Below are positions 1-62,996 of a stretch of 64,000 bases of DNA, one piece after another. Numbering within the stretch: the stretch's first letter is position 1; each line of letters starts with the position of its first letter. The position numbers and the translations under genes were made by a program. The DNA lies in NCBI GenBank assembly GCA_905178155.1, contig CAJINV010000002.1, positions 2,636,226 to 2,700,225 of the forward strand. The letters are read 5' to 3'. The notes beneath the pieces are model-generated. The model searched no databases. It saw nothing but the letters and a program-made list of their open reading frames with translations, and was not told the DNA's origin. Origin of the DNA: Amoebophrya sp. A120. Its lineage: Eukaryota; Protista; Dinoflagellata.

Positions 1-1134
1 GGGCAAGCCGATCGCGGATTTGGAGCCGTTTTTGGTAGAGGACATGGGCGGAAAACCGGATTTGCTCAACGCCGCTGATTATCAAATGCAAAAATGTCTG
101 GGTCTGGAAGAATGCAACTTGTAATGCGTATTTCAGAACACCATGCATACGTAGCAAAAGCTCCCACTTTTTGTCAGAAAAATAGGGGACTTGTCATGCG
201 GATTCGGCATTGCGGAAGGTTCTCCAAACCTGTGATGCTAGAGCTTCCATGCCAGCCCTTCTGGGTAATGCAAAAACAGCATGACTCTTCCAGACCCAGA
301 CATTTTTACATTTGATACTGATCAGAAGAACGGGAACCGGGCCGTGCACATCGCCGCGCAGAATGGGCATGAGGAGATCACGAAGTGGCTGATTGGCACG
401 CTGAGTGCGGATGCGAACGCGCAGAATCGGAAGGGGCAGACGCCGTTGCACATGTATAAAATTGTGTTGAATGAACGTGCTTCACCTTTTTATGCATGAC
501 AAACCACGGTTCTGAATGGTACACTCTGCATCACAAATCTATATGGCAAATCAGGTCTATCGAGTACGACTTTTACTTTCAAAACGTTTTTCTCCTGACG
601 TCCGGCGCGGACCAAACCTTAACCAACGCGGACGGGCACCCGGCGATGTTGGGCATCGACGGGAAATATGCATTGCAAATATGTCTGGGTCTGGAAAGTT
701 GGAACTTGTAATGCTGGTCTTGCATTCCTGTCAGATCTGTATTGCATGACTCACAAAAGTCGCAGCCTCTACTGTCATACAAAAACGCAGTTTCTCATGC
801 GGAGCGCGTATGAGGAAGCGTTTTGCAAACGTGTAATGCGTTCCTGCATGAGGGAGCGTTTTCGTCATGCACATTTCAGCATCACAAATTTCCAGACCCA
901 GACATATTTGCATTTGATAGGAAAAAATCCGGGGTGGAGGCCTGGGATCACGCCATGCAGAAGCTGAAGGCCGTCCGGGATGAAGCGAGTATGGAAGACG
1001 CGTTTGCGGCACTGGAAGCGTGCACGGATGAACTGGACAAGGGCATGCTGGGCATGACGGGGATGAAGAAAAAGAAGCAATACAAGGAGTGGTGGGATGT
1101 GAAACGGTTCACGGAAATCATGTCGAAGTTTTGA
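1..1134 (+). CDS. Ankyrin-repeat protein, paralog 1 (5' end outside window; 3 introns)
   Basis: Removing 80-317 and 667-919 (each plus one TSD copy) and GT-AG intron 454-554 gives GKPIADLEPFL...DQKNGNRAVHIAAQNGHEEITKWL...NAQNRKGQTPLHMSIEYDFY...FTEIMSKF*. Has ankyrin TPLH/AA-GH motifs and is colinear with the gene at 2330. Confidence 0.9.
80..317. mobile_element. Introner family A
   Basis: TIR tatcaaatgcaaaaatgtctgggtctggaa; TSD CTGAT. Confidence 0.95.
454..554 (+). other. Canonical GT-AG intron with introner-like internal motifs
   Basis: CAC AT|gtataa...aatcag|G TCT restores HMSIEY; contains gcatgacaaa (494) and gcatcacaaa (528). Confidence 0.85.
667..919. mobile_element. Introner family A
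   Basis: Family A TIRs; TSD GGAAA; restores DGKKSGVE. Confidence 0.95.
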
Positions 1135-2329
1135 TGATAAAGTAAAAACCAAATGGAATGGATCGATAAACGACATATGAAACCGTTTGAGTTTTGACAA
1201 GACATCTACAGGAGCCTGTAGTTCTGCTGGGGGTTACTATTTATGAATTGTAAAAAATGCACCATCTAGTATAGCACGTGCTGTAGTTACAACACATTAG
1301 TCGCGCGCAGCCACGAAGATCCGATTTCTGACCAATCATCCGCCGGCCGAAAACTTTATCTGGGGCAAGTAGCTTGCTTCTCAACAGGAAAAGGCATAGA
1401 CCTTAAAAGTACTAAGTAGTACTCTAGAAAGTAGTTATTTCGCGACCATTTATGATACCTATGATTTTAGGAAGTAGAAGATACTCATTCTCGCCGATCT
1501 ACTACGTCTACCCACGAAGGAACTTGAGAATACAACTTTTTACGCCTGCACATTGCTTGAGCTTCACGCCTGTACAATATTTTGAGCAACGACTCTAAGT
1601 GCATAATTCCAAGGTATGTCCGCATCATGTATCGTCCATTTTGGGAGCGGCAAAGCGCAGGTTTGGTTTTCAATGCTTTGAAAAAGTAGAATCTGCGGTG
1701 TTCAACAAGTACAGCACACGTAATATATTCGACTGCTTAGTCGCGATGTGCAGGGACGAGTCAAAATCATGCATTGTGCAAAAACATTGAATAATCGGTC
1801 TAGAAGAGGTTCATTGCTTGGGCATGTGCTGCATAAATGTCGGTTTTTTTTTTCACCCTTTCCCTGCGTCTACTCGGTGAAGGTGCACACGACCAGAATT
1901 GAGGTCCATGAAAGGACGCACTGGTAGCTCCACATGCGTAAACACGATTCGGTTTCTTTTGTTTTTGTGCATACACTACATCATGATTTCTGTACAAGTA
2001 GTGCAACTGCTGCTTGACACGGTTGTAGTTTATACGGCCCCATGCTTGAAGATATCCCATTCTACTCAACTGGAATCCAAATGTCAATAAATCACAGTTC
2101 TCCCTGGTTGAGAACTCTTTCCCTCAAAAATACGCATCAAACCCCAGTAAGTTTAAGTACAACGTAAGCGTTTAGAATCTGTTTGTTAGTTTCTCCCGCA
2201 CAATTTTTCACTACTTTTGTTGGAAACGCCATCGATCCGTCTTGCAGAGATCAATTTTTTTCCCCCCGGCTGAGTCTGCTTATTTGCAAAAGCAACGAAG
2301 TCAAAAACCCAATCCCAAAACGAGCAATT

Positions 2330-3494
2330 ATGCCAGCGGAAGAAGCGATTCAAAAGTTCCACAGCGCATTGCGCTGGGGAAAGCCGTCGGCCGAGATCGA
2401 ACCGTTCCTCAACGAAGACCCCGCACTGATTGACGCCGAAGACCCGAAGAATGGGAACCACGCACTGCATATGAATTGCAAATATGTCTGGGTCTGGAAG
2501 GTGGTAACTTGTCATGGTAAATCTGAAGCATACAAAAGTCTGTGTTGCATGAGTTCCAGAAGCTGTCCACTTTCGACCAAGTTGGGAGGAAGTTTCTCAT
2601 GCAGGATAGGCATGGCAGAGACCTCATGGGTCATGGAAAATCTGCATGACAAGTTTAGACTCTTCCAGACCCAGACACTTTTGCACTTGATACTCCACAT
2701 CACGGCGCAAAACGGGCACGAGGAGTTGACGAAGTTTTTGGTCGGGAAGGGCGCAAACATCAACGCACAAAACAAGAAGGGCCAGACCGCGTTACACATG
2801 TCAGTCGAGTACGATTTTTACTACCAGAATTTGTTTCTGCTCGAGAACGGCGCAGACAAGACCTTGAAGAACGGGGACGGACATGCCGCCATTCTCGGGA
2901 TCGACGGGGGGAAGTCGGGGGTGGAAGCGTTTGATGGGCCCATGATCAAGTTGAAAGCGATCCGGGATCAGAAGGGAATGGAGGAAGCGTATTTTGATAT
3001 GATTTTGACAATGCATAATTTCATTCAAGTACCCTTCAACTATGGAATTCGATTTGGCATGCAAAATCGAAAACCACATCAAAAAACAGTTTCACCGCCC
3101 TGGAAAACGCCGCTCCAGAACTGGTGGACAAGGCACAACTCGCCCAAGTGGGCATGAAGAAGAAGAAGGAATTTAAAGATTGGTGGGACATGAAACGGTT
3201 TGCGGGGATATCAAATGTAAAAATGTCTGGGTCTGGAAGATTACCAGGTTTGTCATGCACATTTTGCATGACTCCTGATGTCTGTGATGCATGCCCTAGC
3301 ATCACAGATTTTGTGAGGGCTTCCTGATGCCTATACCGCATGACAAATGCTCTTTCCGTGTAGCAAAACTTGGACTCTCTTTGCTGCTCATGCAATACAG
3401 ATTTTTTTAGAATCCAAAATCAGCATGACAAGTTGGATTCTTCCAGACATCCAGGGATTTTTACAGTTGATAGGGGATTATGGGCAAGTTCTAG
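2330..3494 (+). CDS. Ankyrin-repeat protein, paralog 2 (3 introns)
   Basis: MPAEEAIQKFHSALRWGKP...NGNHALHITAQNGHEE...KGQTALHMSVEYDFY...FAGIMGKF* after removing 2470-2692, 2989-3089 and 3209-3472. Confidence 0.92.
2470..2692. mobile_element. Introner family A
   Basis: Family A TIRs; TSD CTGCA/CTCCA (synonymous mismatch). Confidence 0.93.
2989..3089 (+). other. Canonical GT-AG intron with imperfect terminal inverted repeats
   Basis: GC|gtattttgatatgattttg...gaaaaccacatcaaaaaacag|T restores EEAFTALE. Confidence 0.85.
3209..3472. mobile_element. Introner family A
   Basis: Family A TIRs; TSD GGGGA. Confidence 0.93.
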
Positions 3495-7900: not shown

Positions 7901-10900
7901 ACATCCTTCTGGGTTTCAACTACAGCCAGGAACATCAGGAACGACAGCTGCAGCAGTTCTTGGAGGACCTCAATCCTCTCACATGAGCACCACCAACAAC
8001 CGCATCATACCAGTTCCCTCGCCAGCCATTCAGTACGCGACCTTGACATTGAACGACGAGCAGCACTACCTGATTCCGGTGGAAAAAATGAGCGAGTTTT
8101 CGTATCGAGCGACTGTAGAAGCAGGACTACAGGGAAGACTTGGCCCGGCAGGTAATAGTGTTTCTCCTGCTGCGGCTGCGCAACAGGAACAAATGCAACT
8201 GCAGAATCAGACTGCAAAGCGTCCTTCCAGCAGAATAACGCACCGCCCGTCTCCGATTCTAACCGCTATTGCTAGTAACAACAATCCACCCACATCAGCG
8301 ACGTCGTTTTCCAGCCCACCCATGCAACATCCCTTGACGGCGCCGCATGCCGGGCGAGTTGTAGATACGCAACATCAACAAGTGCTTTACCAGCAGCCAA
8401 ATATGAAAGGCGTCTTGCCGGCAGCATCAGGTGGCGCAAGTGCTTCGAGTCAGTTCGAACCTAGTCCGAGTTTGCAGCCACAGAAACAACTGCAGCACGA
8501 ACAGCTGTCCTCGGGTGCAGCGTCAAGTTCCGTGGCGCCGCAAGTCCTCCTCGAGCAGCAGCCGTATCATCCTCACCACCTTCCGCAGGTGTCCTTTTTC
8601 CACTGGCTCGGCCGGGAAGTGACCGGGGAATCGGATGCTCCCTCGCCCTACTACAAGTACAGCCGGGCGCTGCACTTGGAGGATTTGATGCGCACCCCGT
8701 GGCGGTTGGAGAAGACGCTGCTCTTCGGGATGTTTCTCTGCCTCGACGCGCTTTTGCACGAACTGACGTTTATGCCGATAAACGTGTTGCGGAGCGTACT
8801 GTTTGGGTCAACAAGCTCGCCGTCAACAGAGGCGACGAGCGCTGGTATTAAGAGCAAAAGTAAACAATCGTCGACAGGAACGGCGAATAGTAACCCTACC
8901 CAGAGCAAGAAAAGTGGAAGCAAGCAGGAGATTGGTGGGGGAACAAGTACTGCAGTTTCAAGTGTCAAGGACGGCGGTGCAACAGCAGGCGGGGTTACAA
9001 GTGGGGCTAGTACACCAGGTGAAAGCAGTGCTCCGACCGGAGACAACCTCGTGCACGGGACAACCCATACTGGGACGACGAGTACAGCAACAAATAACCC
9101 CGCCTCGTCATCAACATCCCTTGTGGTCGTGCCCAGTAACAACAAAGCAACTTCTTCGGTAACAGCAGCAGGAGGAGGAGGCAACACAACTACAACTAGC
9201 TCCACAACTTCCAGCATAGAGAAGTCCGAGACTTTCCGGCTCACTTTGCTCCTGCTCAACTCGCTGCTGGTGCTCTACTTGATTGATTTCTCCTTTCTCT
9301 ACCACTACATTCGGTCGCAGTCGTTCATGAAATTGTACGTCTTCTTCAACATGTTGGAGATCATCGAGCGGTTGTTGCGGTTATGCATTGCAAATATGTC
9401 TGGGTCTGGAAGGTTGCAACTTGTAATGCTAACTCTGGATCATCCAAAAATCTTTGTTGCATGAATGCCAAAACTTGTCCACTTTTGACGAAGTTGAGAG
9501 GAAGTTTCTCATGCAGAATAGGCATGATAGGGCTCTCACAGAATCTGTCATGCTAGGTGCTGCATTCCAGACGACATGGATCATGGAAAATCTGCATGAC
9601 AAGTCTCGGAATCTTCCAGACCCAGATATATTTGCAATTGATAGCGGTCGCTCGGCAACGATTTTTTCGACGTCTTGCTCGAACCAACCGGCGGGGCAGA
9701 TAGTTCTTCAAGTGGAGCAGGTACTACTACTTCTGGAGGCGCGGTGCAGAGGGAGAAGTCTGGAGAAATGGCCGGTCGGGATTCGCATATGCATTCGCAA
9801 ATATGTCTGGGTCTGGAAGAATGCAACTTGTGACGCAAATTTGAGATAACACAAAGATCTGTCATGCCTAGACAGCAAATGCGGCTCAGAACTTGGCACT
9901 AAAAGCGGGGGTTTGTCATGCGGATTAGGTATTGAGACACCTTCTCAAGACGTGTGATGCTAGGGCTTGCATGCCAGACCTCCTGGGTCATGCAAGAGCA
10001 GCATGAGAAACATCTACACTCATCTAGACCCAGACACATTTGCACTGGATATCGCAACTGAGACGGCAACTAAGCCAAGGCGGAGCAGGGGCTCAACACG
10101 GAACAACGTCGTGTATGAGATTGCACAACTCCCCCTTCCCCTCATTTGTAATGCAAAATACCAAATCCACCCTGTGGCTCTTGGCACTTTTTGCATGACA
10201 AGTTCTGGCAGCCCAAATAGCACTACATTTCTGTGCAAATTTGTCATGCAAAACCTGCGTTCTTGTTGACACTTGTATTGCTGTTCATGCTATACAAATG
10301 AGGGGGAGGGGGAGTTGTGCACTGTTATATCGTCAAGAGGTAGGCTATTGACCTCCGGAACCCTTACCGCGCAAAGCCCAAAACAGGGCGGCCGGAGCTC
10401 GCCAAAACAGAGTGTGGTCTCCACGTCGAGCGGCGCTGGGTTTCTTGGGATGCAAAATGTTACAGCTATATCTAGTCATGATCACCAACAGTTTCAGCCG
10501 CGGGTTTCGCAGAGAAGTAGTGGAAATCCTTCTTCAACAACACGATCGCCACTGAAGCAGCAGGGAACAACAAACAACAATTTCACAGCTTTAGCGCAGC
10601 ACCAGTCCACCTCTTCACAGGAGCACCAGGCAGGCAGTAGTACAAATTCAAACTTCGCTTTGAACCAGCAAAGAATCAGCACGATATCCACTTCGTCGTA
10701 CGAGTCGACTGGTGTTGGTCAGCAGCAGATGCAGGTCAACGCCGCGGCTCACACTTCTCAACAGCGCCCGAACCACGGCAGCAGTTACTTGAGTCAGTCG
10801 GCCGGCGCGAACGTATTACAGAAGGAGATCCAGCTGGTGAATTTGCAATTGGGCAGCGTAAGCGCCGGTGGGCATCAGCTCACGCAAGACCGAAGTAAAC

Positions 10901-12796
10901 TCACCGCGAGCTCTTCCAATGCGCCGACGTCTCCGATTTCGAGTCCGATCTCCAGCCAGAGCAGCAAATCGGTGCCGGCGTCTCCAGTGGGGAGCAAGGG
11001 GACGACAGGTATGTTTGAACTGTCGGAGATGAGTGGTCATCAGTTTAATAACATGTTGCCAGGAGAACAACACCAGCTGGTAGGCAGTAGTAGTACCAGT
11101 GGTCTTCGAAGGCTCTCGAAGCACAGCTCAGCCAGCAAGACGTCCGGAACGTCGACCGCTAGGGAATTACAACAGCAAAACCGGGCAACGGAGATGAAAA
11201 TGAGCGGCAATAGCAGTAGTGGTGGAACACCAACTTCTTCCTCCTCGAATCAGTTACACCAGCCGCAACTTCTGTCATCTACTTCTGGCATCAATTACAA
11301 CAACAGCTCGAACAAAACATCAAGTCACTACCAACCCGCGGCGATTTTCGCGCCACTCTACTATTTCCTCCTTTCGAGTGACTACTTTTCCGTCATTCGA
11401 CTACTCTTCACGGTGTTGTACTGTGCTGTGCACACGATAATGCACATCGTCCGCATTTTGCTACTCAACATTGCGCTCAATTCCCCGGGAGACTCCTCCG
11501 CGATGTTTTTGCTCATCGTCACCAACAACTTTGGGGAATTGAAATCCACCGTGTTCAAGCGGTACGACGGGAAGGGTTTGTTCGTCATCATGGCCAGCGA
11601 CATGGTGGAGCGGACCTACCTGCTGGTGGATATTCTGTTGGTGCTGGCGCGACTCTACTTCTCGCCGCGAAACAATTTCACCAACGTGAGCTCCTCCACC
11701 GTCGCGTCCCAGGGCAGCAGCGAGATCGCGTTCTGGCTGAGTCTCATGATCGTCATGGAGATTGGGGTGGATATGGAACTGTCAGGATTGAAATGGACAA
11801 AGTTGAAAAATTTGTGATGCATAGAACCGATACCACTTGGAAGCCCAATTTCCAAGCGGCGCATGACAAATTTCGACGTCATCATAATCCAGTTTGTGAT
11901 GCTGTTTAGCGAAAGAAGGCGTCCTTTGTCATGCTACTTCAGCAGCTCTATCCCAAACCCGAAACAGGCTCACAAGCGGCCTCACATGCAATCCCTGCAA
12001 GACAGTCACCTCGTGCCTTGCATTTTATGCATCGCAGATTATTTCAACTCTGTCGATTTCAATCCTGACGCTTCCATAGTGGACTGGTTTAAGTTGTCCT
12101 TTATCACCAAAGCGAACTCGTTACCCGTCTCCACGTTCGACTACTACAAGGACGTGTTGGTGATGGACGTGCTCGGTAGCCGCAGCACCTCGAGCAGCAG
12201 TGGCGGTGGCACCAGTGCGGGCAACAGCAACTCGCAGATCGAATCGCCGTTTCGGGGCGTGTATCAAATGCAAATATGTCTGGGTCTGGAAGATTCCGAG
12301 ACTTGTCATGCAGATTTTCCATACCCCATGCTGTCTAGAATGCAGGACCTAGCATGAGAGATTCTGTGAGCAGATCCCTATCATGCCCATCTTGCATGAG
12401 AAACTTTCTCTCATTCAACTTGGTCAAAAGTGGCCAACTTTTGGTATTCATGCAACACAGATTTTTGCACGATCCAGAATTAGCATTACAAGTTGCAGCG
12501 TTCCAGAGGACCCAGACATATTTGCATTTGATAGTGTGTACGGGTACGCCCACATCCCCGTGCGGCGGATCGGGTTTGTGGCCCTGCCGTTGACGAGCAT
12601 GGTCGTGTGTCACCTGCCGATCTTGCTCAAGTGGTACCCGAACGTGCGCACGCGGCTGTTGCTGCTGGCGCTGTGGTGGGTCAACGCGGTTTTGCTGAAG
12701 ATCCTCAGCAGCATCCTCCTGTCCGGCTACAGTGTAAGGCGGGCGGTGAATCTCGGGAAACTGCCGGAAACCTTCTACCACATCAAGGCGCTGTGA
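4947..12796 (+). CDS. TAPT1: TAPT1/Emp65-family multipass membrane protein with long Q/S-rich low-complexity extensions (5 introner introns)
   Basis: Motifs PWRLEKTLLFGMFLCLDALL, YHYIRSQSFMKLYVFFNMLEI, TNNFGELKSTVFKRYD, ASDMVER, EIGVDWFKLSFITK, RRIGFVALPL; frame continuous after element removal. Confidence 0.85.
9382..9643. mobile_element. Introner family A
   Basis: TIRs; TSD GCGGT; restores LRSLGNDFFD. Confidence 0.95.
9788..10051. mobile_element. Introner family A
   Basis: TIRs; TSD TCGCA. Confidence 0.93.
10114..10329. mobile_element. Introner family B
   Basis: TIR tatgagattgcacaactccccc / gggggagttgtgcactgttata; TSD TCGTG/TCGTC. Confidence 0.88.
11772..12078. mobile_element. Introner family C
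   Basis: TIR tatggaactgtcaggattgaaat; TSD GTGGA; restores GVDWFK. Confidence 0.95.
12262..12533. mobile_element. Introner family A (reverse orientation relative to 9382)
   Basis: TIRs; TSD GCGTG/GTGTG. Confidence 0.93.
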
Positions 12797-13735: not shown

Positions 13736-16700
13736 ATGGTGCGAAATAACAAGCGAGGAGCTGTGGTTCTTCATTCGTCCCCCAGCCGCGCGGTCGTTTT
13801 GCCGACCGTCTCTGTGGGGGGTCGTCGCACCGCCGGCAAGATTTCCTCCGTGGGGATGTTGCAGAAAGTGATTTTCGCCCCGGTCATTCTACATATCAAA
13901 TGCAAAAATGTCTGGGTCTGGAAACTTGTAATGCTGCGTTGGGAATAGTGAATGCTCTGTAATGCTGCATAAGCAAGCATGAGAAATATCTGCGCTTCCT
14001 TGTGTTGCGTTTTTCGCATGACAAACTGCGTTTCTGCATGACAGGCAAAAGGGTCTCTTCTTGGACACGCATCACAAACTTTTTGGTCATGCCAGACAAG
14101 CATGACAAGTCTCGCAATCTTCCAGACCCAGACATTTTTGCATTTGATACTACAACACCTGACACAATTCTCTGCCGCGATCACGGTGACCGAGGTGAAA
14201 AAACGGTCTCGGACCGCGAGCCAGCTCGCGGTGAAGAAAAAGCGGGCCGCTGGGTCCACCTTTCGTGCGGCCGATCATCCTCCGGAGTCCCAGCCTCCGC
14301 AGCTGTTGTTCCGCTCGAATAGCAAGCAGAAGAGTTCTCACATGCAAGAAAAGGAAGGAGTCGGCAAGACAACGACGACCTTGTCAGCGGACGACAACTT
14401 GAAATGGGAAAAGTTGGGGCTCAACACCTTTGCCTACACCTATGGTCCGGGGCATGTCAAACCTGCTCGCTGTTTTCCTGCGTACCCGCACTTTCGGTTC
14501 GCGAACCGGAAGGAGAAGCTACCGCACACCGCCCTCTTGCATGTTGTGTCCTCCGATGGGAATGGAGGCGAAGCGACTCTGTCGTATGAGATCGTCAAAA
14601 AAGCGCCGGCTTACGAGGGAAGTTTCAAGACCCTAGGGGACTTCCCCAATGACTCCTCACCCGGCACTATGCAGAGCATCGTCACGGGGAACCTGTTTCA
14701 CTTCCCCACGGTTACGTGGGAGGACTGCCGGAACCTGTGTTCGGGTATGTGCGAGTTCGAAGTTAGCGCTGATCGGACGGAAAACTGTGCCGCTTACGAA
14801 GCGGAAGAGGGTCTGGACGCCTCCGGAGCGCGGCAAGTGAAGTGTTACCTGTTTACGTACAAGGACCTTCAGCATTGGACCGACACCGCAAGCACCGAAG
14901 GGTGGGGCTGGCAACCTTTCCAGGACCTTTTTCCAACGAAAGACGGGCTCGCCCAGAACCAAAACGACATCCTTCAAGGTATCGTTCCGGAAGCGCAGAC
15001 GCCCTTGTACACCTGGGAGGAGGGTGGAGAGCGCAACGGGGTCACGGCTGTAGGGTTTTGTGCTTTCACCGACTCGTCACCCGAAATACTGGATACCATG
15101 TCTATATGGAGTGTCACGGACGGGAACGTGACCACAAGAAAAATGGAGCAAATGTATCCAGCTGTGTGAAAACGCGCGCACGAAGTAGACCCGAGTCTTG
15201 TCATGCAAATTTCGCACGTCAAAGTGAAACTGAATGTGGAGGAAGACAGAGAGACGCAGTGTGTGAGCAATGCGCCTCACCATGAGACGATTCTTCCGTT
15301 GGTGATTGGAAATCTGATGTAAGTGAGTGGCATCAGTAGTGCTTGTTCAGGGGTACACACATTATTACCTATCCTTAGAAAACGAGAAAATACAACTTTT
15401 TGTTTTCGCTTTCTAGGTGCTTGGTGCTCCTGCTCCGTATATATTCTTTCAACTCTTTGTTTCTCCTATCAGGATCAGCAATAAGTTACTGCTCTGTGAT
15501 GCTGTAGCCACAGTGGGTAACGACCACCAGGCTACATTACCAGGCCCAGATTTTGCTGCGCAGCTCTCAGAGGCAGGGGTAGGGCTTCTTGATTTGTATG
15601 TACAGCAGAAACGAGTGCCATAGTATGCTGCGTGTGGGCTCTGTTTTTACACCGCATATGAGACGGCCCGGGCAATACATCAACCTTACGTCCTCGAGTG
15701 CCAGCGCCACCGCCATGCCTTCAGACCACCTGCCCTGTGACTGGCGGCAAACAAGTCTGCAGGGGCACGGTTTTAATGGTGAGGATCATGACGCTTTCGA
15801 GACGGTAACTTTTGACCGGAAAAAAATTTCCAGATGGACCTCCGCGTCTGTAGGGGCATACGGAATTCAAGAGGACTGCCCGTTTTTTAGTCCGTGGAGC
15901 TCCTGCGAACTGAAATCGCGGGAAACGCCGAAGCAGGCCGGCGTTGACGCGGGATCCGGTGGCGTTGAAGGCTATGAGCTCCTGGGAGAAAACTTCTGCT
16001 CCTGCGGTGGGGAGGGTCGAATGGGTTGCAATGGGCAGAATGGCAACCCGAGTATGATGCACATGGAGCGCAATGTAGCGGACCCCAAGACCATTTACCC
16101 AGACTACAAAGATGAGAAGACCGCCAGCAAATGCGGGAAAAAGTGCGACGCGCTCGGGGCCGCCTGCGCAGGCTTCCTGTTTAGCGCCACGGACGAGGTA
16201 CGGCAGAACCAAACCTTGTCGTCGCAGTGCGCCCTTTATCTTGGCGGGGGCCATCTGGATACTGACCTCGGTCCTGGACAGAATGAGAATATCCCGGGTC
16301 TTTCGTGCTACCGGAAAATCGATGGAACGGGGCGGGGGGAAGAGGTGAGCCGAATTTTCAACAAGGTGGAAAACGACTGCAGAACCGCTTGCCAGTGCAG
16401 GTCGGAGCCAAACAAGCAAGACTTTGAGCCTCGTCTGAATCTTCCAGAGCACGGCCGGCAGTGCCTGGACCCCATTCCGGGTGCGCGCCCGGTGTTCGGC
16501 GGCTCAGAGCCGACAACAACGGACCGCCGCTCGCCCGCTGCAGGCACACAAGCGCAATGCCAGAGCACGTGTCTTGACAACGAAAACTGTGTGGCCTGGC
16601 AGCACGACGGGGCTGATGGGGGCGGCGTGTGCAAACTGTGGTTTATCAAATTGAAACGCGCTCTTTTTCTCAAAAAGTTGTTCGCGGGTGAAGCAGTGTT

Positions 16701-28570: not shown

Positions 28571-31500
28571 ATGGGCACGGACCACGACGGAGAGAACAAG
28601 GACATCACCCTCCGGGATGTGCTTCGCGACATGAACCGCGTGTCGATGAAGGACAAGCTGCGCCAGAAGCTCCGAGAGCACGAGGGAGAAAAGGACGAGG
28701 CCGGGGCTTTGATCATCCCGAAGCGGCTCGGCACGCAGTGGGTGTGGGAAGCGGGCACGGATATCAACCCGCTGAAAAAGATGGTCGTGGAGTGGTTCCC
28801 GAAGGACGATGGCCCGGCGGCGAAAAAGCAGATCGATGACGATATGCATTTCAAATATGTCTGGGTCCGGAAGGATGCAACTTGTGATGCACATTTCACA
28901 CAACACAAAGATCTGTCACGCATGAACAGCGAACGCGCACGCGGCCCAAAACTTGGCACCAAAAAAGGGGATTTGTCATGCGGATTAGGCATTGAGTTTG
29001 AGACACGCACACGTTCTCAGGACCTGTCATGCTAGGGCTTACGTGCCAGACCTTCTGGGTCACGCAAAACCTGCATGACAAACTTCTGCATTCGTCCAGA
29101 CCCAGACATATTTGCATTTGATACACGAGAATTTGGAGCAGGACGCTGGGGGCTATTCCGCTGGCCGCGGCGGCAAGGGCAGTGTTGAGCAGCAGGCTGA
29201 CAAAGGTGCGGCGAGTAGTATGAAGAGCGTCAAGAAAACGAAAAATAACACTCCCGCTGCGGGCGCAGCCTCGGTCTTGAAGGCGGAGAAGAAGGGAAAG
29301 AAGGAGAAAAACCAGAAGCAGACCAGCAAGTCTACTTCCACCGGCGGTGCTGCTAGTGTGAAGATATTAAATGCAAAAATGTCTGGGTCTGGAAGATTGC
29401 AACTTGTCATGCTGTTTTTGGACTCGAAAGAAATTTGCATTGCATGATCAGCAAGGGAGTCTAATTTGTGCTACGCTGGGAGGGCATTTGTCATGCGGAG
29501 TATGCATCAGGAAGCCCTCTAAAAATCTGTGATTCTAGGTCGTGCATTACAGACATTCTGGGTCAGGCAAAATATGCATGACAAACCCGGCAACATTCCA
29601 GACCCAGACATTTTTGCATTTGATAGAAGAAGAAGATGAGCAAGAAAAATAACAAGGCCACCGCCTCCTCCTCGTCCTCCGCGATCGGGAAGATGAAAAA
29701 GAACAAATCCTCGCTCGCAACAGCCGCTGGCGTAGCGAAGTCGAAAGGTGCTGGAAATTCCGCGAGCAGTTCGTCGAAAGCCGGCGCCGCAGCGGTTGTG
29801 GGGGATATTTTCAACGACACGACGAAAAATAAATCGCGAGCTTCGACGGGTAGGGGCACTACTTCCAACAAGCGCAAGCAAAATTTGTTGGAGGACGATG
29901 AGGGGACGTCTTCCGAGGAAGAAGAGCTGGAGGACAGCGAACAGATGATATGCGATGGGCAAGTATCGGGATCATAAGTACAACTATATAAGTTGCATAG
30001 CGTGACAAATTTTGATTTATTTTTTCCCGATGAGGAAATTTCAATTTGTAATGCAATTTTGCAGCGATTATAGCAAAGATTAGGTCGTGATACTTTTGTG
30101 ATGCATAGATCACCAGTGACGACGAGGTTGAGTTGGATGTTATCCTGTGTAAAAAAATCAAACGCTCTCAGCCACGCACTATGTTTGTCATGCTGATCAT
30201 GCGCCGTCACGACGCACAGTAGAACTACAACTACGTCATTCAGTTATTTCTTGTCGAGCTATTTCTTTCGTGATTTTCATGTACTAGAGGTGGAGGTGCC
30301 CAAATATTGTGGCACGTGCTGATTCTGAGCATAGTAGGTGAGCAGCGTCGTTGTTTAATATTTTACACAGGATAGTACATGAGATGAATGTGGGAGGCGA
30401 ATATGACCCGAACAACTCGGAGCACTCGGTTATGGTGTGTAGCGACTGTTTTACCTTTCTCCTCTGCACTTGCAGAAGCGCAGTAGAGACTACAGTTGTC
30501 GTGACTTGGCTGTAAATGCATCTCGGCTACCACTTCTGAATTATGGAAAACCGTTTTATCAGGCTCGTCAAGCTCAAGACTTGACAAGGCTCATAACACG
30601 GTTTCCCATCATTGATTCTACTTTTTGATTTTTTGCATCTTGAGCAAGATGTGAAGTGGTAAAATGGAGTTGTCCAGCACAATCTCACTGACACTGACGC
30701 CGACCCCCTCTGAGACGCCTGCGAAGTATCCGGGCGATGATGACAAAGAAAAGGCGAAGCTGTTTTTGAAGCGGCAGATTGTACTATTTTATAGACATTA
30801 TTTGTTTTTCATCTAGATGCTGATAGCTGCTCCTGCTTTTACTTTCCTCCCGAGTCGTTTTATTCTCAACCACGACGTGCATGCAATTAATAGAACCATA
30901 GTGTACAAGCATAAATATGGGCATGCCTCACAAAAATACCCCACAGGAAAACATCGAGGACGACTGTAAAATCATGCTAAAATCTCGCGTATCAAGCGAA
31001 AAATGAAAATCAATCCCCCTAGCCCTAACCCGTAGCAGCTCTCCTCCTGTTCCATCTGATGTCAGTCGCTGTTCCTGGTGTCGATCTGACGACAACCTTT
31101 CGGCAGGAAAGCAACGCCTTTAAAAACAATAGGTAAACGAGTTGTAGTCGTTCTTCCTAGTTACAATATCAGCCCATACGCACACGTATGATATTTAGCA
31201 TTTTTGAAAGAGGGGAAAGCTGGGGTATTTTTCGCACTTTGATACGTGAAAATGATGAAGCGGCACATCCTGAGCAAGAGGCGGAAGATTGAACGCCACA
31301 AAGCGATATCAAATGAAAATTTGTCTGGGTGGTCGGGAAAGTTGTCATGCGAATTTGCTGTGGATGATGAGTGGACATACACACAGCGACGAGTATTTTT
31401 ACGGACGCGCGCATGAGAAGTTTTTGAGCGAGTATAATGTCTTCGTGCAGCGTAGAGCGCATGACAAATGCAAATCGCGTTTTTACTCTTACTCGACCTC

Positions 31501-37300: not shown

Positions 37301-40300
37301 CTGCGGGAAAAGGAGCAGGCTGCGGAACGGGAGAGGCAGGCGAGTTGCGCTCTTGCAGCTGATATCAAATGCAAAAATGTCTTGTTCTGGAAGATTCCGA
37401 AACTTGTCATGCTAGTCTGGCATGACTCTGAACTCTGTATTGCATGGCCGCGAAGAGCTCCTACTTCCTGTTATGCAAAAACGCAGTTTCTCATGCGGAG
37501 TACGCAACTCAGAACCATGAAAAAAAAATTGTCATGCCTGGCAGCGCATTACAGTGAGCTCACTACTGCCTTCCTTGCATCACAAGTTTCCAGACCCAGA
37601 CATATTTGCATTTGATAGCTGAGAAAGAACATCAACAGCACCAATCTGGAGCAACGCGTGCTGTTGGTTTAGCCCACAGTAACCGACACGCTGATCTTCA
37701 CGCTCCCCAGGGCAGCGGGAACAAGAAGACGAACAAAAGCAGTCTGAAGCAGAAGAAGTCAACCACCCCCGGAGGAGCCGCGGGGCAAGCTCAACCTGCG
37801 GCAACTACAACTCGGACTTCTCTGGGCGAAAAGGCGAAAAACGCACGGAAAGTGGCCCAGAACATAAGAGGCAGGAGAAGTGCGCAGGACATTGCAGCCG
37901 GTCGTGGTGGTGTGCAGAATGTCAATAAACAGCAGGGTGTAGCCACTGGTTTGTCTAGCAGTAAGAACAAGAAAGCAGGAAGTACTGGTCTATCTTCAGG
38001 AGGTCTATCGGCTCCTCCACCAGCCGGGGGACAAAGTGCGAAAAGCAAGAAGTCCCCCGCTGCGGCCTTCGTTGGTAATACTACTACTACATCTGAGCAG
38101 GCTGACCGGCTGGCCAGTAAAAAACACATGACCACGACCGGCGACAAGGCTGCGGCCCAGGGCGAAAATAAACCTGCGGCAGGACCTCCTTCAATGGGCG
38201 AAAAAGAGAAACAAAAAGCACAGCAGATGCAGACCCACGACAAACCGGACTCGCCCTCGTTAGAATCGCAGTGCTCCATGACCAAAGCGTCGACCTCGAA
38301 GTCGAGCGAAGGAAGCAGTTACAAACCGCCGGAGGAAAATAATTCGTCCTGTGTGGACGAAACCAGTTCGGCAAGCAGTAGTTCGTGTGCGATGGAAAGC
38401 ACGTCGGATGTAGTACAACCGCGACAGAACACAAACACTGCCGGGCTGTTTACTCACGAGGGGAATCTCCGGCAGGACCAACAGGTTCAAGATGGTTCGA
38501 TCGCAGCACAATTTCCTCCGGGCAAGAAGAAGAAACTACCGGCCGCAGCTTTCGCGGCGAACCACCAGGAGGCACTACAGGAACGTTCAGGAAGACATGA
38601 TGGAGACGAGGAAGCCAGTACGGCGCACAAACAAGCAGGACAAAATCAAAATAGCCAGGAAATTATACCAGCGAGTAATAAAGTAGAAGAAGGCGGTAAA
38701 AACAGGCCGTTTTTGCAGGAGCGCGCTTCTAGAGAGGAGAAGCACGACGTCGATGATTGTAAGCAGCATGACAAACGGAAGAACAGTAGATTACGCGGTG
38801 ATTCAGCAGAAAGTGGTTCTTCCTCCAGCTCCTCAAATTCTAAAAACTCCTCTTCAAGTAGCAGCGACAGTGAAAGTGCCCTTATCAAAAACAAAACGAG
38901 AACAAGGCAGAAGCAGAATAAAAGCAAAAGAACAGCTGGTGCAACGGGAAAGAACAAGCGTGGGCGCAGCCGGAGCCCAAAGCAGTTACAGCTCGCGACC
39001 GCGAGCAATAAAACGGCCGCAGACCTGCAGCAGAACAACAAAAAGAAACTGAAGTCGGAAGCGAAAACAGGGATATCAAACAAAGAAGCAAACAGTAGTA
39101 AAAGCAACCAGAATCATGTTAATTCTTGCAACAAATCCGTCTCTAGCCGGAAAGAATCCAACGCTTCCTCCAAAGTGGTCCAGCTTCGCGATGCGAAAAA
39201 CGCCAGCCGCTTGATCAGCGGTAGCCATGACAACATTCGACCCAGGTCTAGTAGACAGTCCTCTGCGAATAGCAGCAAGCCCTTCTGCAACAGCAGCCGG
39301 CGGGGGAACAACGCGAATTCCGATAACGAATTAGACGGAACGAGAGACAATTCCTCCGAACAGAACAACAATTTACGAAATAAGCAGCAACTCCGTCGCA
39401 CGCGCGGGCAAGTGCAGGAGCTGAAACTGTTGAAAAGGCGCCTCTTTCTCTTTCACTACGAGCATTTTATCTACCACGAGACCAAACGGTTCGAGCAACT
39501 GGTCGGCGGGGAGATTTTAACGTTTTTGAAGGAGAAACAAATGTCTGATGTGGTGTTCGTCAATCGAACCGCACCGCCGCATATGGATTGCAAAAATGTC
39601 TGGGTCTGGAAGATCGCAACTTGTGATGCTGTCTCTGCATTCTAAAAAAATCTGTATTGCGTGACCATCAAGAGGGGTCCAGTTTGTGCTACATGGAGGG
39701 GGCATTTCTCATGCGGGATAGGCATCAGAAAGCCCGCTAAAAATCTGTGATGCCAGGTTCTGCATTACAGACGTCATGGGTCATGTAAAATCTGCATGAC
39801 AAGTGTGGCACTCTTCCAGACCCAGACATTTTTGCATTTGATGCCGCAGCTATCCACGACCTCGAGCAGTACAACAACTTCCCGCTCGTTGCGCAGCAAT
39901 GGAGGGGCATCAAGTTCGGGCGGAGCCGCCGCCTACGGGACGGCTTCCTTCCAACAGGCGCAGATGACCTGCGCGATGGTGCGTTCGGTTTCCTTGCGAA
40001 CGGTGATGGAGTCCGCGCACGCGGCCCCGTGGGCGGAGGTGGAGTCGTTGTGGGGAAAAGATGACATTGTGCGGGTGGTGTACAAAAACATGCAGGAAAT
40101 CTCGGGGCATAAAGGATACGTCGAGTTCTATTTTCCGGACTTGCACGAGTTGCAAAAACCACTGGACCACAGCGTCAAGGAAGCGGACCTGATGCGATGC
40201 AAGTACTTACCGAATTATCAGGGGTTTTTTCGATTTCTTTTATGAAAGTGAAGAGTTGTGCGTGGTGCAGCTCTTCCCGACTCCATCTGAAGTTCTGTGT

Positions 40301-49902: not shown

Positions 49903-52724
49903 ATGCCGAAATCCTCTACTTCCCCCACCTCTTCCTCTTCCTCCCCGAAGAACGCGAAAGCCAACGCTGTATCAATTGCAAATATGTCTGGGTCTGGAAA
50001 TGAAGTGGAACTTGTATTGCGTGTCCAGGATTCCAGAAAAATCTGTATTGCATAAAAGCACCAAGAGCGCCGCGTTTTCATCGTGAGAAAGCGCAGTTTG
50101 TAATGCGCAATAAGCATGAGAAAGTGTCTGAAAAATTTGTCATGCTCCACTGCTCTTACAGGCGCAGTCACTCATGGCCATTCAGCATTACAGGTTTGCA
50201 GACCCAGACATATTTGCAATGCATACGCTTCCACCAAACCCCACGCAGTGAACGACGACGGCCGGAGACCGTTGCCGAAAAATGGCGAGAAAAAGGAACC
50301 CGGGGTTGTGTACGAGGATGGGTCCTACATTCCCATCGTGGACAAGGAGCTCATCGGCTTCATGCGGTACGCCGGGGATGTTTACGACGACGGGGATAAG
50401 GCCGCGGACACAGACCCGTCGGACTTGGATTCTGCGGATGATGACCAATTGAATCGGGATTCCGATTCCCTCGTTTCCTTCGACGAGGACAAGGAGAAAG
50501 CGAAATTGGACGAGGAGAAAGAACTCTTATCCGAGAACGAGTTTGACAAAAGGACCAAGGAAATCGAGGATCGAAGAGAAAAGTTCGAGCATAAGGAGAT
50601 CAAGCGCGTTCCGATTCGGACCGTTTTGGATGAGAAATTTGGCTTCACGGAGGATTTTCAGCGCCACGCCGCTGGGTATCTGACAAGACACCCCGCGAGC
50701 AAGTTCTACAAGAAGATCAAGGACGAGCCGATCCGGGCGCATAAACGGTTCGACCAAGCTATCATTTGTAACAACGTCCCCACCCCAGAGTTGTAATGCA
50801 AATCATCTGCATGCTGAAAGTGTTTCTCATGCGGAGACCCATGCGAAGCAGTCTGTAGTCGTCTTTTGGTATTTGTGATGCTAGAATCAGCATGATATAG
50901 ATATGCTAGATCTGTGATGCTTCTGAACAAGCTAAACAGGAGTACACTACGAGGCCATACTTGTCATGCGCAGCAGCAAAAGCTGACAGATTTGTCTAGC
51001 AGATTTCCCACTTTGACTCTGGTGTGGGGACGTTTTTACTAAGGATACAAGCGGATCTGCGGATTACGAAAAATAAACACGGGCCCTGCAAAGGGCAAGA
51101 TTGGAGCTGGCAGGAGTTGAACACGTTTGTGAAGGGGGAAATCAGAAGAAAAAATCACAAGCCGAAACTGAAGCCGAAAAGGCTGGTTTCCTCCGACTGG
51201 TTGGAAGAGATGATGGTGGATGAAGTTTTGCAAGATGCAGCCGATGTGACGATATGCAGTGCAAAAGCATCGTACTCGTATAAATGCATTACAAATTTCC
51301 CCAGCGTGAGAAATAATAATTTGTAATGCGGATTTACCTCAAGAAAAAGATTTGTAATGCATGGCTGCAATACGACTGCCTACGATACTTTTGCACAGGA
51401 TAGACGAGAAAAGCGAATGAATCGGACGATGAGAGATCCAAAGACCATATCATACCAAAAAGTGTTAACGTTAACGGAATTTGGCATGCAGGAATGCACG
51501 AGAAATGATGCCCCAAGTTGTATTGCATAGCATGCATGATAGCGAAAATTTGTCATGCATGCCTGCAACGCCCCAAAACCGCTATACGTATAGCACTTTT
51601 TTCGTTGATAGACCAGCACGCGGCCTTGTGGGCGGAGAAAAATCCGAAGAAGAAGATGCACATGAAAATGCCGCTGGAGGACTCGTATTTGAAGAACAAG
51701 GAGGACACGAAGGAGGAAGCATTACGCGTGAAACTGGAAGAAAGAGCGGAATATCCAGTGCAAAAATGTCTGGGTCCCCTGTGCGGGATTTGTCATGCTA
51801 GTCGGGCATGACACTGAGCTCTGTATTGCGTGGCCAGCAAGAGGAGCTCCTCTTATCTGTCATGCAAAAACGCTGTTTGTCATGCGGATTACGCAAGAAC
51901 ACGGACACGGAGCCAAGATGAATAAATCTGTCATGCCTGGCGCTGCATTACAGTGTGCTTTCTTTTCACTGACATGCATCACAAGTATCCAGACTCAGAC
52001 GTATTTGCAATGGATACGGAATTCGCCCGGATGCTAAAGGAGGGGTACACGCAGGACATCACCAATGAGGAGAAATATCCTGTGCAAAAGTATCGTAGTC
52101 GTACTAATCGCATTCATGCATTACAAATGTCTTTCTCAAGGCAGATCCGCATTACAAATTTTATTTCTCGTGCTGAGGGAATTTGTCATGCATTTATACG
52201 AGTACGATACTTTTGCACAGGATAAGAAACAGGCGCTGATGATATCCAAAGTGAAAACGTCCCCACGTCGACCCCAGCAGAGTCAAGATGGGGACTTTGC
52301 AACACAAACCTAGAAGTTTTGGAATTTACGCATGACAAGTTGCAGTCCGTAAGGTAGGGCAAGTTAGCAAGGACAGCAGCTGCATTACAAATCCATCTGC
52401 TTATCCTGTTTACAGCAACACAAAGTTAGTTGTCCCAAACACGATAATTGAAAATGCCTGTCATGCGGATGCGGATCACAAAAGATTCCTGTCACTGCAA
52501 AGCTGCATGACAACGCTGGGTTTTGGGGACGTTCCTACACGGGATACATGACGAAAGCGAGGTTCGCGATCCAGGATAAATACGCGGAGAGGGGTTACGA
52601 AGAAATCAAAGCGGAAGAGGATAAGAAAGCGAAGGCGCGGGCGGAACATGTGGAAACGAAAGTTTACAGTCGGATGGAATTGAGAGCGAAGGAAAAGGCG
52701 AAAAAATCCGCGCTGTTTGGGTGA
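49903..52724 (+). CDS. Hypothetical charged (K/E/D-rich) protein with 7 introners from 4 families
   Basis: MPKSSTSP...EPGVVYEDGSYIPIVDKELIGFMRYAGD...AKKSALFG* continuous after removing all 7 elements. Confidence 0.85.
49970..50225. mobile_element. Introner family A
   Basis: TIRs; TSD CGCTG/CGCTT. Confidence 0.92.
50760..51047. mobile_element. Introner family E
   Basis: TIRs (aacgtccccac); TSD CAAGC. Confidence 0.92.
51253..51402. mobile_element. Introner family D (reverse orientation relative to 52076)
   Basis: TIRs; TSD GACGA. Confidence 0.93.
51448..51610. mobile_element. Introner family H
   Basis: tatcataccaaaaagtgtta / tagcacttttttcgttgata; TSD GACCA. Confidence 0.85.
51752..52016. 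mobile_element. Introner family A
   Basis: TIRs; TSD CGGAA. Confidence 0.92.
52076..52224. mobile_element. Introner family D
   Basis: Perfect TIR tatcctgtgcaaaagtatcgta; TSD AGAAA. Confidence 0.95.
52243..52546. mobile_element. Introner family E
   Basis: TIRs; TSD GATGA/CATGA. Confidence 0.88.
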
Positions 52725-56080: not shown

Positions 56081-56144
56081 CATCGTGACTCCGATTCCCT
56101 AGTGTCCTTCGACGAGGACAAGGAGAAAGCGAAATTGGACGAGG

Positions 56145-56458
56145 TATCACAAGGAAAAATGCCCCCGCCCCATAACAAAACGGAAATCTGTGATGCAGAT
56201 TTGTGGCCACAAATCAGCTTTGTCATGCCAGAAGGGAAAAGATGCGGACTGTAGTGCTGGGCTGCGTGGGAAAGCCTTGCATCTTCAGCATGAGAGGAGG
56301 CAGCTGGAAGTGAAAAACAGCATGACAAATTGCCTGCAAACGAGGCCACAACTGCGGCTCTTGGCCTTCTAGCAAGACAAGGCGACTTGTCTACTCAAAT
56401 GCAGCATCACGACAAACGTCGTCTTCGATTTGGGGAGCGGGGATTTTTCCTTTTGATA
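56145..56458. mobile_element. Introner family G
   Basis: tatcacaaggaaaaat / atttttccttttgata; TSD CGAGG; site empty in the paralog. Confidence 0.9.
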
Positions 56459-56590
56459 CGAGGAGAAAGAACTCTTATCCGAAAACGAATTTGACAAAAG
56501 GACCAAGGAAATCGAGGATAGAAGAAATAAGTTCGAGCATAAAGTTCGAGCATAAGGTCGTCTTTTCGTGTCTTCGTCCACTGACGGTAC

Positions 56591-57733
56591 GTAGAGGAAA
56601 AAACAAAAAGGCAGCGGGCGGCAGTAGTCGTCCCAGCGAGGCTGAGGACATACGACGACAAAGAAGTTGCAACCTCTGGAAGCTTCAAGTACCTGGGAAC
56701 AACAGTAGCGAACAACGCAAGCACGACAAAAGAAGTGGAAAGGCGCACAGGGATAGCAAAAGCAACGGCGGAGCAACTGCGAAGAGTGTGGAGAGACAAA
56801 GCGACCCCGGAAGAACTAAAGGCGGAGCTTTTTTCGGCGTTGTGCAGCTCCGTGGCGCTGTACAATTCCGAAACGTGGACCCTGCGCGAGCAGGACATGA
56901 AGCTTCTGAAACAGTACCAGCACCAGACGCTGAGAACGCTCACGGGGGAGTGGAGGGCCTGGCAGAAGGAGGCAGAGAAGGGGCAGGAAGAAGAAGAGCT
57001 GCAGGAGCTAGACGACGCAGCGGAATACGCAAGTCGGATGGACCTCTGCCGGAAGGCAGGGGTCTTGGACATAGAAACGATGCTGCGGGAGAAACGGGTG
57101 GCCTGGATCGCGCATGCAGCGCGAGACAGGTCAGAGAATTCTTTTATGTGGATCGCCACCGAGATACGCAGAAAGAGTATTTGGGGAAAGCAGGCGGCGC
57201 TCGATCTCGAGCGCTATGGATTCACGCTAGAAGCACTCACGCAGCAGCCACCAGACGCAGAAACAGTGCGCAACACACTAAAAGAAAAAAGAGCATACCA
57301 GACCGGGAGAGGGGAGAAGCCGAGGCAAAAACGACAGAAAACAGAGCGCACAGAGCAGATGCGAGAGGAGCAGCGGCAGAGAATAGCGCAGCAAAAAGCG
57401 GAACAAGAAGAGGAACGGCGGCAATTTGTCCAGAAAATCGACGGCAAACGCTGGGTGAGATTACCCGGCCGACGGGATGCCTGGCACCCAGAAGACGACG
57501 CCCAGGTGCTGTTCACCGCGACGGACGATTTTTGTGAAAATACGGGAAGAGAAATCCTGTATGTTGCCGGCTTGACCTTCTACCGAAACCCGGAGGACCA
57601 CACGTGGAGCACAGAATGACCGGGGGATGCTAAAAGACAGTGTTTGTGTGCACGTCCAGTCAAGAAAAAGACAAGAAAATAGATACGAGGCTATTTATTT
57701 CGGACAAGCACAAGAATGATGATGATGATGATG
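56591..57733 (+). mobile_element. 5'-truncated non-LTR retrotransposon (RTE-like LINE)
   Basis: Open frame 56591-57619 with RT C-terminal FKYLG and EVERR..IA...LYNSETWTL thumb motifs; 3' (GAT)n tail; 12-bp TSD cactgacggtac (56579-56590, 57734-57745). Confidence 0.88.
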
Positions 57734-61200: not shown

Positions 61201-62996
61201 AATCCATATCGTGATCGCGTGCTTGATTTTGATCGGCGTCGCGGTGATCTACGAAATCTACCGCTGCGGAAAGGACGGGATGACGGTCTATTGCTACCGG
61301 CGGTGCTGCTGCGGCTGTTGCGATTGCCTCTGGCGGATGTGCGGGCTGAAGGGGAAAAAGTATTTTCCAAAACTAACTACAACTTTAACTTTTGTGTTTT
61401 CCTTTTCATCAAAATTCGTTATCCGTGTAGAAGAGCGTCAGCTTTGCTTCGTCTTTTTCCAGCAAGCGCAATACAAAACTCAAAAAACCTATACTTATAC
61501 CATATCAGGCCCGCCCCCGTGACTTCCCCTACGGCGACCCGGAACAACAACGCCGCGCGCGGCCTCCCCTCCGCTATCCGCCGGAACAGCAACTCTTCTT
61601 ACCAGGAATTGGTGGAAGCGCAACGCTATGCACTGCAAATATGTCTGGGTCGGGAAGAATGCAACTTGTGATGCAAATTTCAGACAACGCAAAGATCTGT
61701 CATGCATGAACAGCAAATGCGGCCCAAAAATTGGCACCGCAATAGGGGATTTGTCATGCGGATTAGGCAACATCGGGACACCTTCTCAAGACGTGTAATG
61801 CTACGATTTGCATGACAGACCTCCTTGGTCATGCAAGAGCAGCATGACAAACATCTGCACTCACCTAGACCCAGACATATTTGCATTTGATAAACGCCGA
61901 TTCGATTCCGGGATGATGGTACCAAATGTAAAAATGTCTGGGTCTGGAAGGTTGGAACTTGTGATGCTAACTTTGGACTCTAAAAAAATCTGTATTGCAT
62001 GACCAGCAATAGGAGCCCAGTTTGTGCTACGCGGGGAGGGCGTTTGTCATGCGGGATAGGCATCAGGAAGGCCTCTAAAAATATGTGATGCCAGATCATG
62101 CATTACAGACATCCTGAGTCATGGAAGATATGCATGACAAACCTGGCAACCTTCCAGACCCAGACATTTTTACAGTTGATAGATGGGCCAAGTCCCTCCG
62201 GCCTTTCTCGTTGGCCGGAACCGGGGTACTGCAGCTCATACGGCCCCGAACGTCATTCCTGTTGTACAACCGGGAGCAAATGGTGCTGCAGGTGGTCCCC
62301 CAGGGGGGATGTACTTGATGCAAGCCCCGATTCCGGTCCAGATTAACCCGAACACCGGGAGCTTGCGGTACAATCAAAATGCTAATTTGAATTCCCGGGG
62401 ACCAGCACCTGGACCACACAACCATAACAACAACCAGCAGCGACTAGGCCGTCCCCACTCCGCTCCCATGGTGACGATTATGGAGCAGTCGCAGCCGATC
62501 GGGAACACCAACAATGCGATGAATCCTCAACCACAATCCGCTATCAAATGCAAAAATGTCTGGGTCTGGAAGAATGCAAGATTTGTCATGCATATTTCTC
62601 ATGACACATGATGCCTGTAACTAATGCTTGACCTAGCATCGTAGACTTTTGGAGGACTTCCTGATGCACCTTCCGCATGAGAAATGCCCTGTTGTTCGTG
62701 TAGCAAAAACTGCACTACCCCTCTTGCTGGTCATGCAATATAATTTTTTTTACACTCCAAAAACAGCATGACAAGTTGCAATCTTCCAGACCCAGACATT
62801 TTTGCAGTTGATATCCGCTGCGGTGCAGCAAGTCCAGATTGATTTGCAGAAAGACAGTGAACTGATCATCGCCGAGGCGATCGAGTTGGCGCGGAAACAA
62901 AAGCAAAATTTGATCGTCATCACGGGGGAAGACACGCGGGTGGAAGTGGCGCCGGCAGACGCGGAAGAAGTTTTACCTGCGCTGCGGGCGGCGTGA
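58209..62996 (+). CDS. Trypsin-like (S1) serine protease with signal peptide, C-terminal TM helix and Cys-rich cytoplasmic tail (9 introns)
   Basis: CGGSLLSETHVLTAAHC, YDYAVL, TGWG, SCAGDSGGPLVC, QYGIVSQG; TM IFVIACLILIGVAVIY; CYRRCCCGCCDC. Confidence 0.92.
59072..59343. mobile_element. Introner family A
   Basis: TIRs; TSD AGCAA. Confidence 0.95.
59838..60057. mobile_element. Introner family E
   Basis: tatcctgtgtaa / ttacacaggata; TSD ATCTT. Confidence 0.92.
60108..60413. mobile_element. Introner family C
   Basis: TIRs; TSD ACGGG; lies just upstream of catalytic GDSGG. Confidence 0.95.
60632..60901. mobile_element. Introner family A
   Basis: TIRs; TSD AGCCT. Confidence 0.95.
60965..61208. 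mobile_element. Introner family A
   Basis: TIRs; TSD TCGTG. Confidence 0.95.
61360..61508 (+). other. Canonical GT-AG intron with introner geometry (G-TAT...ATA-TCAG)
   Basis: AA|gtattt...ccatatcag|G CCC restores GKKPAPVT. Confidence 0.8.
61627..61892. mobile_element. Introner family A
   Basis: TIRs; TSD AACGC. Confidence 0.95.
61920..62181. mobile_element. Introner family A (left end TAC)
   Basis: TIRs; TSD GATGG. Confidence 0.93.
62542..62813. mobile_element. Introner family A
   Basis: TIRs; TSD TCCGC. Confidence 0.95.

Follow-up and report, generated by a model that had tools for sequence, protein, structure and literature searches.

Introners and canonical introns in a 64,000-nucleotide window of Amoebophrya sp. 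A120: a likely excision register, GT-AG ends without an age trend, and a shared internal motif

We have analyzed a window of 64,000 nucleotides from the dinoflagellate Amoebophrya sp. A120 (contig CAJINV010000002.1, positions 2,636,226 to 2,700,225, forward strand) whose genes, among them two tandem ankyrin genes, are interrupted both by introners, which are repeated elements removed as introns, and by canonical GT-AG introns. The introners end in terminal inverted repeats (TIRs) that, by an end profile, start with TAT followed by seven variable bases and AAA. They match the published A120 introner elements, for which the sections of Farhat et al. (2021; PMC7789003) covered here give the same TIR together with direct repeats of 3-5 nt and non-canonical ends. 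An exact 5-bp target site duplication (TSD) accompanies 383 of the 517 copies detected in the window and in added loci, and the median best-hit similarity among copies is 0.86. Internally they carry a motif of the GCATGACAA type, about three copies per element on both strands and with no strand preference (652 versus 681). No strand-specific conservation of ends or motif was found in oriented copies, and position +5 is C or G in 439 of 455 introners. A preliminary description of the window, whose coordinates proved correct, had proposed that young introners have no GT-AG ends, that older copies gain a G at +1 or a terminal AG as TIR and TSD decay, and that many canonical introns are domesticated introners. 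The elements and this idea are known; the signal that survives our analysis is an excess of the internal motif in canonical introns.

One exon, from the second ankyrin gene, matches an Amoebophrya sp. A120 protein at 100% identity. As an added sample we used 141 loci (785 kb) from one metagenome assembly, in which a pattern scan found the same introner families. Window copies match these loci at a median of 0.88 and at most 0.99, and on this sequence likeness the assembly is treated as the same strain as A120 or a sister strain. The loci provide extra sample size and not orthologs, because no locus is in common with the window. Introners were detected independently of the TSD, and 455 of the 517 copies could be oriented while 62 were dropped; element ends were set by the end profile, as an inner TAT at +13 otherwise misplaces them. 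A loose scan for TIR plus TSD was discarded because its output was mostly noise. Junction evidence comes from transcript-like contigs of runs X1 and X4, which are putative RNA in that every listed intron is missing from them. Raw RNA reads of X8 and X10 yielded 82 partial matches and 0, respectively, and so speak neither for nor against any junction. These junctions cover window positions 1-20000, with 15 of 37 joints listed, and the junctions at 30141, 31566, 40203, 49969 and 61360, outside this range, are predictions.

In all nine introner joints among those listed, the element plus 5 nt is skipped. The single unambiguous introner junction, 15153 to 15663, places the cut 1 nt ahead of TAT and 4 nt beyond ATA (-1/+4), as the preliminary description had assumed; in record 4 of X1 the pieces end at 15153 and resume at 15663 with contiguous record positions. 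Two imperfect TSDs bound the cut from either side, as it must fall after TSD position 3 or later because RNA keeps the upstream base at the 2467 mismatch, and after position 4 or earlier because RNA keeps the downstream C at the 10113 copy. Additionally, Table S4 of PMC7789003 has T at +2 in all nine predominant non-canonical A120 donors, which is what the -1/+4 register predicts. The five copies in which ATA is followed by G (667, 3209, 9382, 11772 and 12262) all skip the element plus 5 nt. The 12261 copy combines a GT donor with an AG that lies in frame 3 nt upstream of its cut, and this AG is unused in the listed joint, although minor use could still occur because contigs drop rare variants. 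A coding-likelihood test of the register favored the upstream base at TSD positions 2 (14/20) and 3 (15/17) and was not significant at positions 1, 4 and 5. The cut register is thus likely set by the element ends, and it may already appear in the repeat positions of Fig. 3, S21 and S23 of PMC7789003.

Because the register is likely fixed in this way, the GT or AG state of a copy would be set by the duplicated host bases. Among 339 copies with a perfect TSD, 104 begin with GT (31%), 30 end with AG and 12 do both (3.5%), and 16 are GT-AG in some equivalent register. The frequencies of +1 G and terminal AG are indistinguishable from the flank background, in which G stands at 0.29 and AG at 0.067 (p=0.51 and 0.13), and the shares of GT and GT-AG copies agree with exon base composition. 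Of the 34 perfect-TSD copies in the window, 6 have GT at the start, and those at 31924 and 56144 are GT-AG, contrary to the claim that young copies have no such ends. The proposed gradient is not seen, as neither +1 G nor terminal AG increases with TSD decay, TIR decay or divergence in the 455 oriented copies. By TSD matches of 5, 4, 3 and 2 or fewer (the last class containing mis-pairings), GT occurs in 104/339, 25/72, 6/21 and 4/23 copies and AG in 30/339, 3/72, 0/21 and 4/23. When TIR score, best-hit similarity and TSD were combined into an age composite, its quartiles of 113-114 copies held, from oldest to youngest, 33, 36, 34 and 36 copies with GT and 9, 12, 8 and 8 with AG (Spearman 0.015 for +1 G, -0.026 for terminal AG). 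Best-hit similarity alone gave AG in 14/150 of the old third, 17/155 of the middle and 6/150 of the young (rank test p=0.22), and neither GT nor AG rises with age in the alternative register. The intronic base in 93 TSD-mismatched copies was likewise not biased to the canonical one (+1 G 6 versus 4, -2 A 4 versus 7, -1 G 3 versus 10). Several older window copies are non-canonical by frame, namely 29963 (GT..TC), 30989 (GT..TG), 31306 (AT..GG), 21937 (CT..GT) and 22452 (GT..AC).

Individual copies that had been cited for the gradient fared differently. The gain of a G at 10113 is borne out, as the base is intronic in RNA and is derived, since keeping it creates an in-frame TGA; it is one of 6 among 14 such mismatches, which is about the chance rate. 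The copy at 31566 is indeed predicted to end in AG, the only frame that keeps the open reading frame (ORF). The 49969 copy is not decayed, with a TIR score of 20/24 (91st percentile), and its G cannot be polarized. At 30141 the supposedly gained terminal G is TSD position 1 and is the same as in the upstream copy. The best single case for conversion is 15154-15662, which the preliminary description did not list. An alternative reading takes it for a 2-bp duplication that was GT-AG at birth, as its downstream flank opens with the last two upstream bases; this pattern occurs in 6 of 40 low-TSD copies versus 2.6 expected, a weak excess (p=0.037, uncorrected). Copies without a flush 5-bp TSD are often offset by 3 nt (10097 in metagenome locus L056, 2123 in L003, 9475 in L031, and 15154, 30140 and 30989 in the window). 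Such offsets, whether from 2-bp or 8-bp duplications or from three extra bases, are what a fixed cut plus frame selection would give, albeit on weak statistics, and 2-bp or 8-bp duplications are weakly suggested as a source of seemingly decayed TSDs. Two further decayed TIR elements, at 19058-19399 and 18139-18410, have borders that could not be fixed, and the first may lie outside coding sequence.

Canonical introns were collected with a gene parser, which gave 126 GTA..HAG calls in 70 sequences (715 kb). These were reduced to 85 by removing 25 with clear introner similarity, calls above 350 nt, calls ending in ATAG and three doubtful window calls, and then to a strict set of 80 by removing five with introner-like end scores (two of which were one region called on both strands). 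The predicted motif excess is present: 16 of the 80 introns, about one in five, hold 18 hits against a shuffle mean of 2.0 (maximum 7 in 300), and the core 9-mer alone gives 12 versus 0.6. Motif density is 1.16/kb in canonical introns, compared with 0.14/kb in the intergenic DNA of the window, 0.24/kb within long ORFs and 0.45/kb where the loci have long non-coding stretches. GTAT is the commonest donor (39/85), and the motif is commoner with it (11/34 versus 5/46, p=0.024). Motif-bearing introns are shorter (166 versus 196 nt, p=0.04), and the flanks of their motifs resemble introner flanks (p=7e-6 versus random positions). Other expected traces did not appear, or appeared only in part. ATA at -7..-5, for which an excess had been anticipated, is not in excess, being present in 1/85 (0/80 versus 1.5 at other offsets); no TSD relic was found at positions 1-2 (21 versus 21.7 and 20 versus 23.1). 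Inverted repeats are weakly enriched, with a local score of 7.26 versus 6.74 (p=0.018; 8 of 80 introns at p<=0.05), but their polarity is opposite to that of the introner TIR; end pairing at the introner register is 4.34 versus 4.11 of 14 (p=0.08).

RNA support within the strict set extends only to the introns at 454 and 2989. These lie in the tandem ankyrin paralogs at 1-1134 and 2330-3490, which are identical at 113 of 171 aligned residues (66%) and have three introns each with no common position; each of the two introns is missing from the other paralog. The two motifs described in 454-554 are confirmed as GCATGACAA and GCATCACAA, and at least two hits occur in 0.045% of shuffles (p=0.00045). 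The 15/19 terminal complementarity described for 2989-3089 is also present, as the best of 40 offsets, and is matched by 0.06% of 6320 mismatched intron pairs and 1% of own-composition shuffles. However, it lies at offset 0/2 and not at the introner 1/4 (offset 1/3 gives 14/19), and its polarity is opposite; the hairpin is not a family TIR because canonical introns are rich in T at the 5' end and in A at the 3' end, and introners the other way round. In the public A120 protein P0001, 2989-3089 is read as coding and leads into a different C-terminus, which is likely an annotation error because transcript contigs and the homologs P0002 and P0003 support splicing. The predicted intron at 61360-61508 does show G-TAT..ATA-TCAG at introner spacing and restores the frame, but its inverted repeat does not exceed chance; among 85 other predicted canonical introns, 1 has ATA at the same offset, and descent of 61360-61508 from an introner is plausible. 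The sub-terminal inverted repeat described at 40203-40436 is no better than chance, as 7% of permuted pairs and 23% of shuffles of the intron itself reach it.

The account that we favor, with confidence a little above even, combines excision at a fixed register with the origin of a minority of ordinary introns from copies that were born with GT. An A120 introner is excised together with a single 5-nt target duplication, with the element ends, and not the terminal dinucleotides, probably determining the cut. The TAT of the element would provide +2..+4 of the GTAT donor, and the terminal hairpin may define the 3' cut. A GT-born copy could later shed its TIRs, shorten and acquire an A/C-rich CAG acceptor, so that scraps such as the internal motif would be all that remains. 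Conversion would thus depend on birth state, which acts as a filter, and on a later jump, with no gradual gain of GT-AG. What stands of the domestication proposal is that some predicted canonical introns carry introner sequence; gain with age does not stand, and "many" has an upper limit, since some 55% of the canonical introns in A120 lie at positions shared with strain A25 (arithmetic from 19.4% and 35% in the covered sections of PMC7789003). In that study position-conserved introns (19.4% of all) are 98.6% canonical and A120-specific positions are 24.8% canonical, and a direct-repeat/inverted-repeat organization is given for 15% of A120 canonical introns.

Several observations weigh against this account. 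The register relies on one unambiguous junction, and coding likelihood at TSD position 4 leaned the opposite way (upstream base 6/18, p=0.09). TIR-based detection misses the oldest copies, and five of eight hand-picked low-TIR window copies start with G (1/9 among low-TIR copies in the metagenome loci). On the side of the canonical introns, 78 of the strict 80 are ab initio predictions without RNA, and older mis-parsed introners may remain among the calls because 25 of the 126 raw calls were of this kind. Canonical introns carry the motif with a strand bias (14 antisense versus 4 sense, p=0.03) that introners do not show, and retention of the element 5' half is not borne out, as the motifs are not confined to the 5' half of canonical introns. 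Motif-bearing GTAT donors are not intact element ends because +5 is C or G in only 2 of 11, versus nearly all introners, and the base polarity of canonical ends is reversed, as described above.

The main rival, which we hold to be unlikely yet the strongest of the alternatives, takes the motif for a signal of host splicing and has introners carry motif and TAT for splicing in either orientation, so that descent is unneeded. The antisense bias fits this reading, and so do the motif-bearing introns, whose 3' ends are typical of canonical introns, with neither ATA nor an excess of TIR or TSD, and whose +5 differs from that of introners. The GTAT donor would also have an independent explanation, since Table S6 of PMC7789003 lists snRNP27 as not detected in A120 and PMC10581693 reports, in the part covered, that SNRNP27K/METTL16 loss accompanies +4 U; GTAT may reflect U6 pairing in such a lineage. 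Conversely, a host signal should contend with the absence of the exact motif from 64 of 80 canonical introns, with the introner-like motif flanks and with the lack of strand preference inside introners. It is likely that one of the two holds, either descent of a minority of canonical introns from GT-born introners or mimicry of a host signal by introners. A bolder form of the latter, tentative and again on the unlikely side, has introners as splice-signal mimics in which TAT copies donor +2..+4 for a spliceosome in which U1 has not been detected, the symmetric GCATGACAA repeats copy or became the host signal, and the hairpin sets the -1/+4 cut despite available GT-AG. With the motif present in a fifth of ordinary introns, transposons and the host splicing code would then have exchanged a signal.

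It is rather improbable that the motifs in canonical introns were left by elements inserted into existing introns, or that they belong to old non-canonical introns that the parser forced onto GT/AG. The 25 mis-calls among 126 and dropped calls with introner similarity in the interior only are in keeping with this, but motif-bearing introns are shorter, not longer, intergenic DNA shows no motif excess, and the RNA-confirmed intron at 454-554 holds two motifs in 101 nt. Least probable, and only marginally so, is the original proposal that introners, as they age, acquire +1 G and terminal AG under selection in the same register and yield many canonical introns, which can call on the derived G at 10113, the decayed GT-AG copy at 15154-15662, the AG of the 31565 copy, the TAT, ATA and motif of 61360 and the low-TIR window copies starting with G, but which for recognizable copies is largely refuted by the missing trend in 455 copies and missing bias in 93, by ATA in 1 of 85 and by the second reading of 15154.

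The covered sections of PMC7789003 describe the splice position as variable or unknown relative to the hairpin and hold no age test; to these the present analysis adds the bounded register, the measured fraction born canonical and the internal motif in canonical introns. An incomplete collection of the literature contained no paper testing an age gradient or the motif in A120 canonical introns; further related work is found in PMC12130899, PMC11282704, PMC12005148 and PMC11453091. Fungal introner-like elements are described (Collemare et al. 2013; PMC3609843, in part) as losing length and structure until they become indistinguishable from ordinary introns. They are spliceosomal introns from the start, whereas most A120 copies are non-canonical (GT-AG in 12 of 339 perfect ones), and therefore only the GT-born subset in A120 has a route of that type. 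In euglenid nonconventional introns (Milanowski et al. 2016; PMC4770533, in part) a hairpin joins the intron ends, as in A120, but the pairing is between +4..+6 and -8..-6 with a purine preference at +1 that A120 lacks; "intermediate" introns with one canonical border were mostly judged there to have no kinship with conventional ones, with one possible conversion. Conversion of non-canonical transposon introns into ordinary ones bears on how spliceosomal introns originated. The A120 data argue against slow splice-site repair and for sorting by birth state, with converts at most a minority, and the register and shared motif bear on how these introns are recognized by a spliceosome in which no U1 has been detected.

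Table 1. Introners and canonical introns of the window discussed in the text (all coordinates in window positions)
Feature	Coordinates	Strand	Basis or remark
Canonical GTAT..CAG intron, two introner-type motifs	454..554	+	Joint 453 to 555 in X1, X4
Introner, TSD mismatch at position 3	2469..2696	+	Joint 2467 to 2696; RNA keeps upstream base
Canonical GTAT..CAG intron, T-run/A-run terminal hairpin, no exact motif	2989..3089	+	Joint 2988 to 3090, unambiguous, X1/X4
Introner GT..TC, derived +1 G	10113..10333	+	Joint 10108 to 10330; RNA keeps downstream C
Introner GT..GT	12261..12537	+	Skip of 277 = element + 5
Decayed 504-nt introner, G-TAT..ATA-TGAG, GT-AG at exact introner spacing	15154..15662	+	X1 record 4, TIR p=0.0025
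Introner, intact TIR, predicted TT..AC	30140..30378	+	Frame model
Decayed introner, predicted AT..AG	31565..31867	+	Frame
Perfect-TSD (GGAGG) introner, GT..AG at birth	31924..32078	+	
Predicted canonical GTAC..CAG intron, no motif	40203..40436	+	Frame
Introner, near-perfect TIR, predicted GT..CT	49969..50229	+	+1 G differs from downstream TSD base
Perfect-TSD (CGAGG) introner, GT..AG at birth	56144..56462	+	
Predicted canonical intron, one motif 41 nt from 3' end	61360..61508	+	Frame, motif

The window holds several other features. A U6 small nuclear RNA gene with an intact ACAGAGA box (43620-43725, plus strand) adjoins a signal recognition particle (SRP) RNA gene (43074-43221, plus strand), and a near-identical element lies upstream of each, at about 43570 and 43020, respectively. 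The region 55500-56540 is a partial duplicate of the gene at 49903-52724, and the introners at 55780 and 56145 are found only in the duplicate. Next to it, a 340-codon open frame (56597-57619) gave no Pfam match; by eye we presume a resemblance to the end of a LINE-type reverse transcriptase. A sequence of roughly 30 nt is repeated near 55495, 56557 and 57730 and brackets this frame. Finally, the GC-rich stretches at 25700-26400 and 63640-64000 look alike by eye in inverse orientation and are possibly the ends of another repeat.

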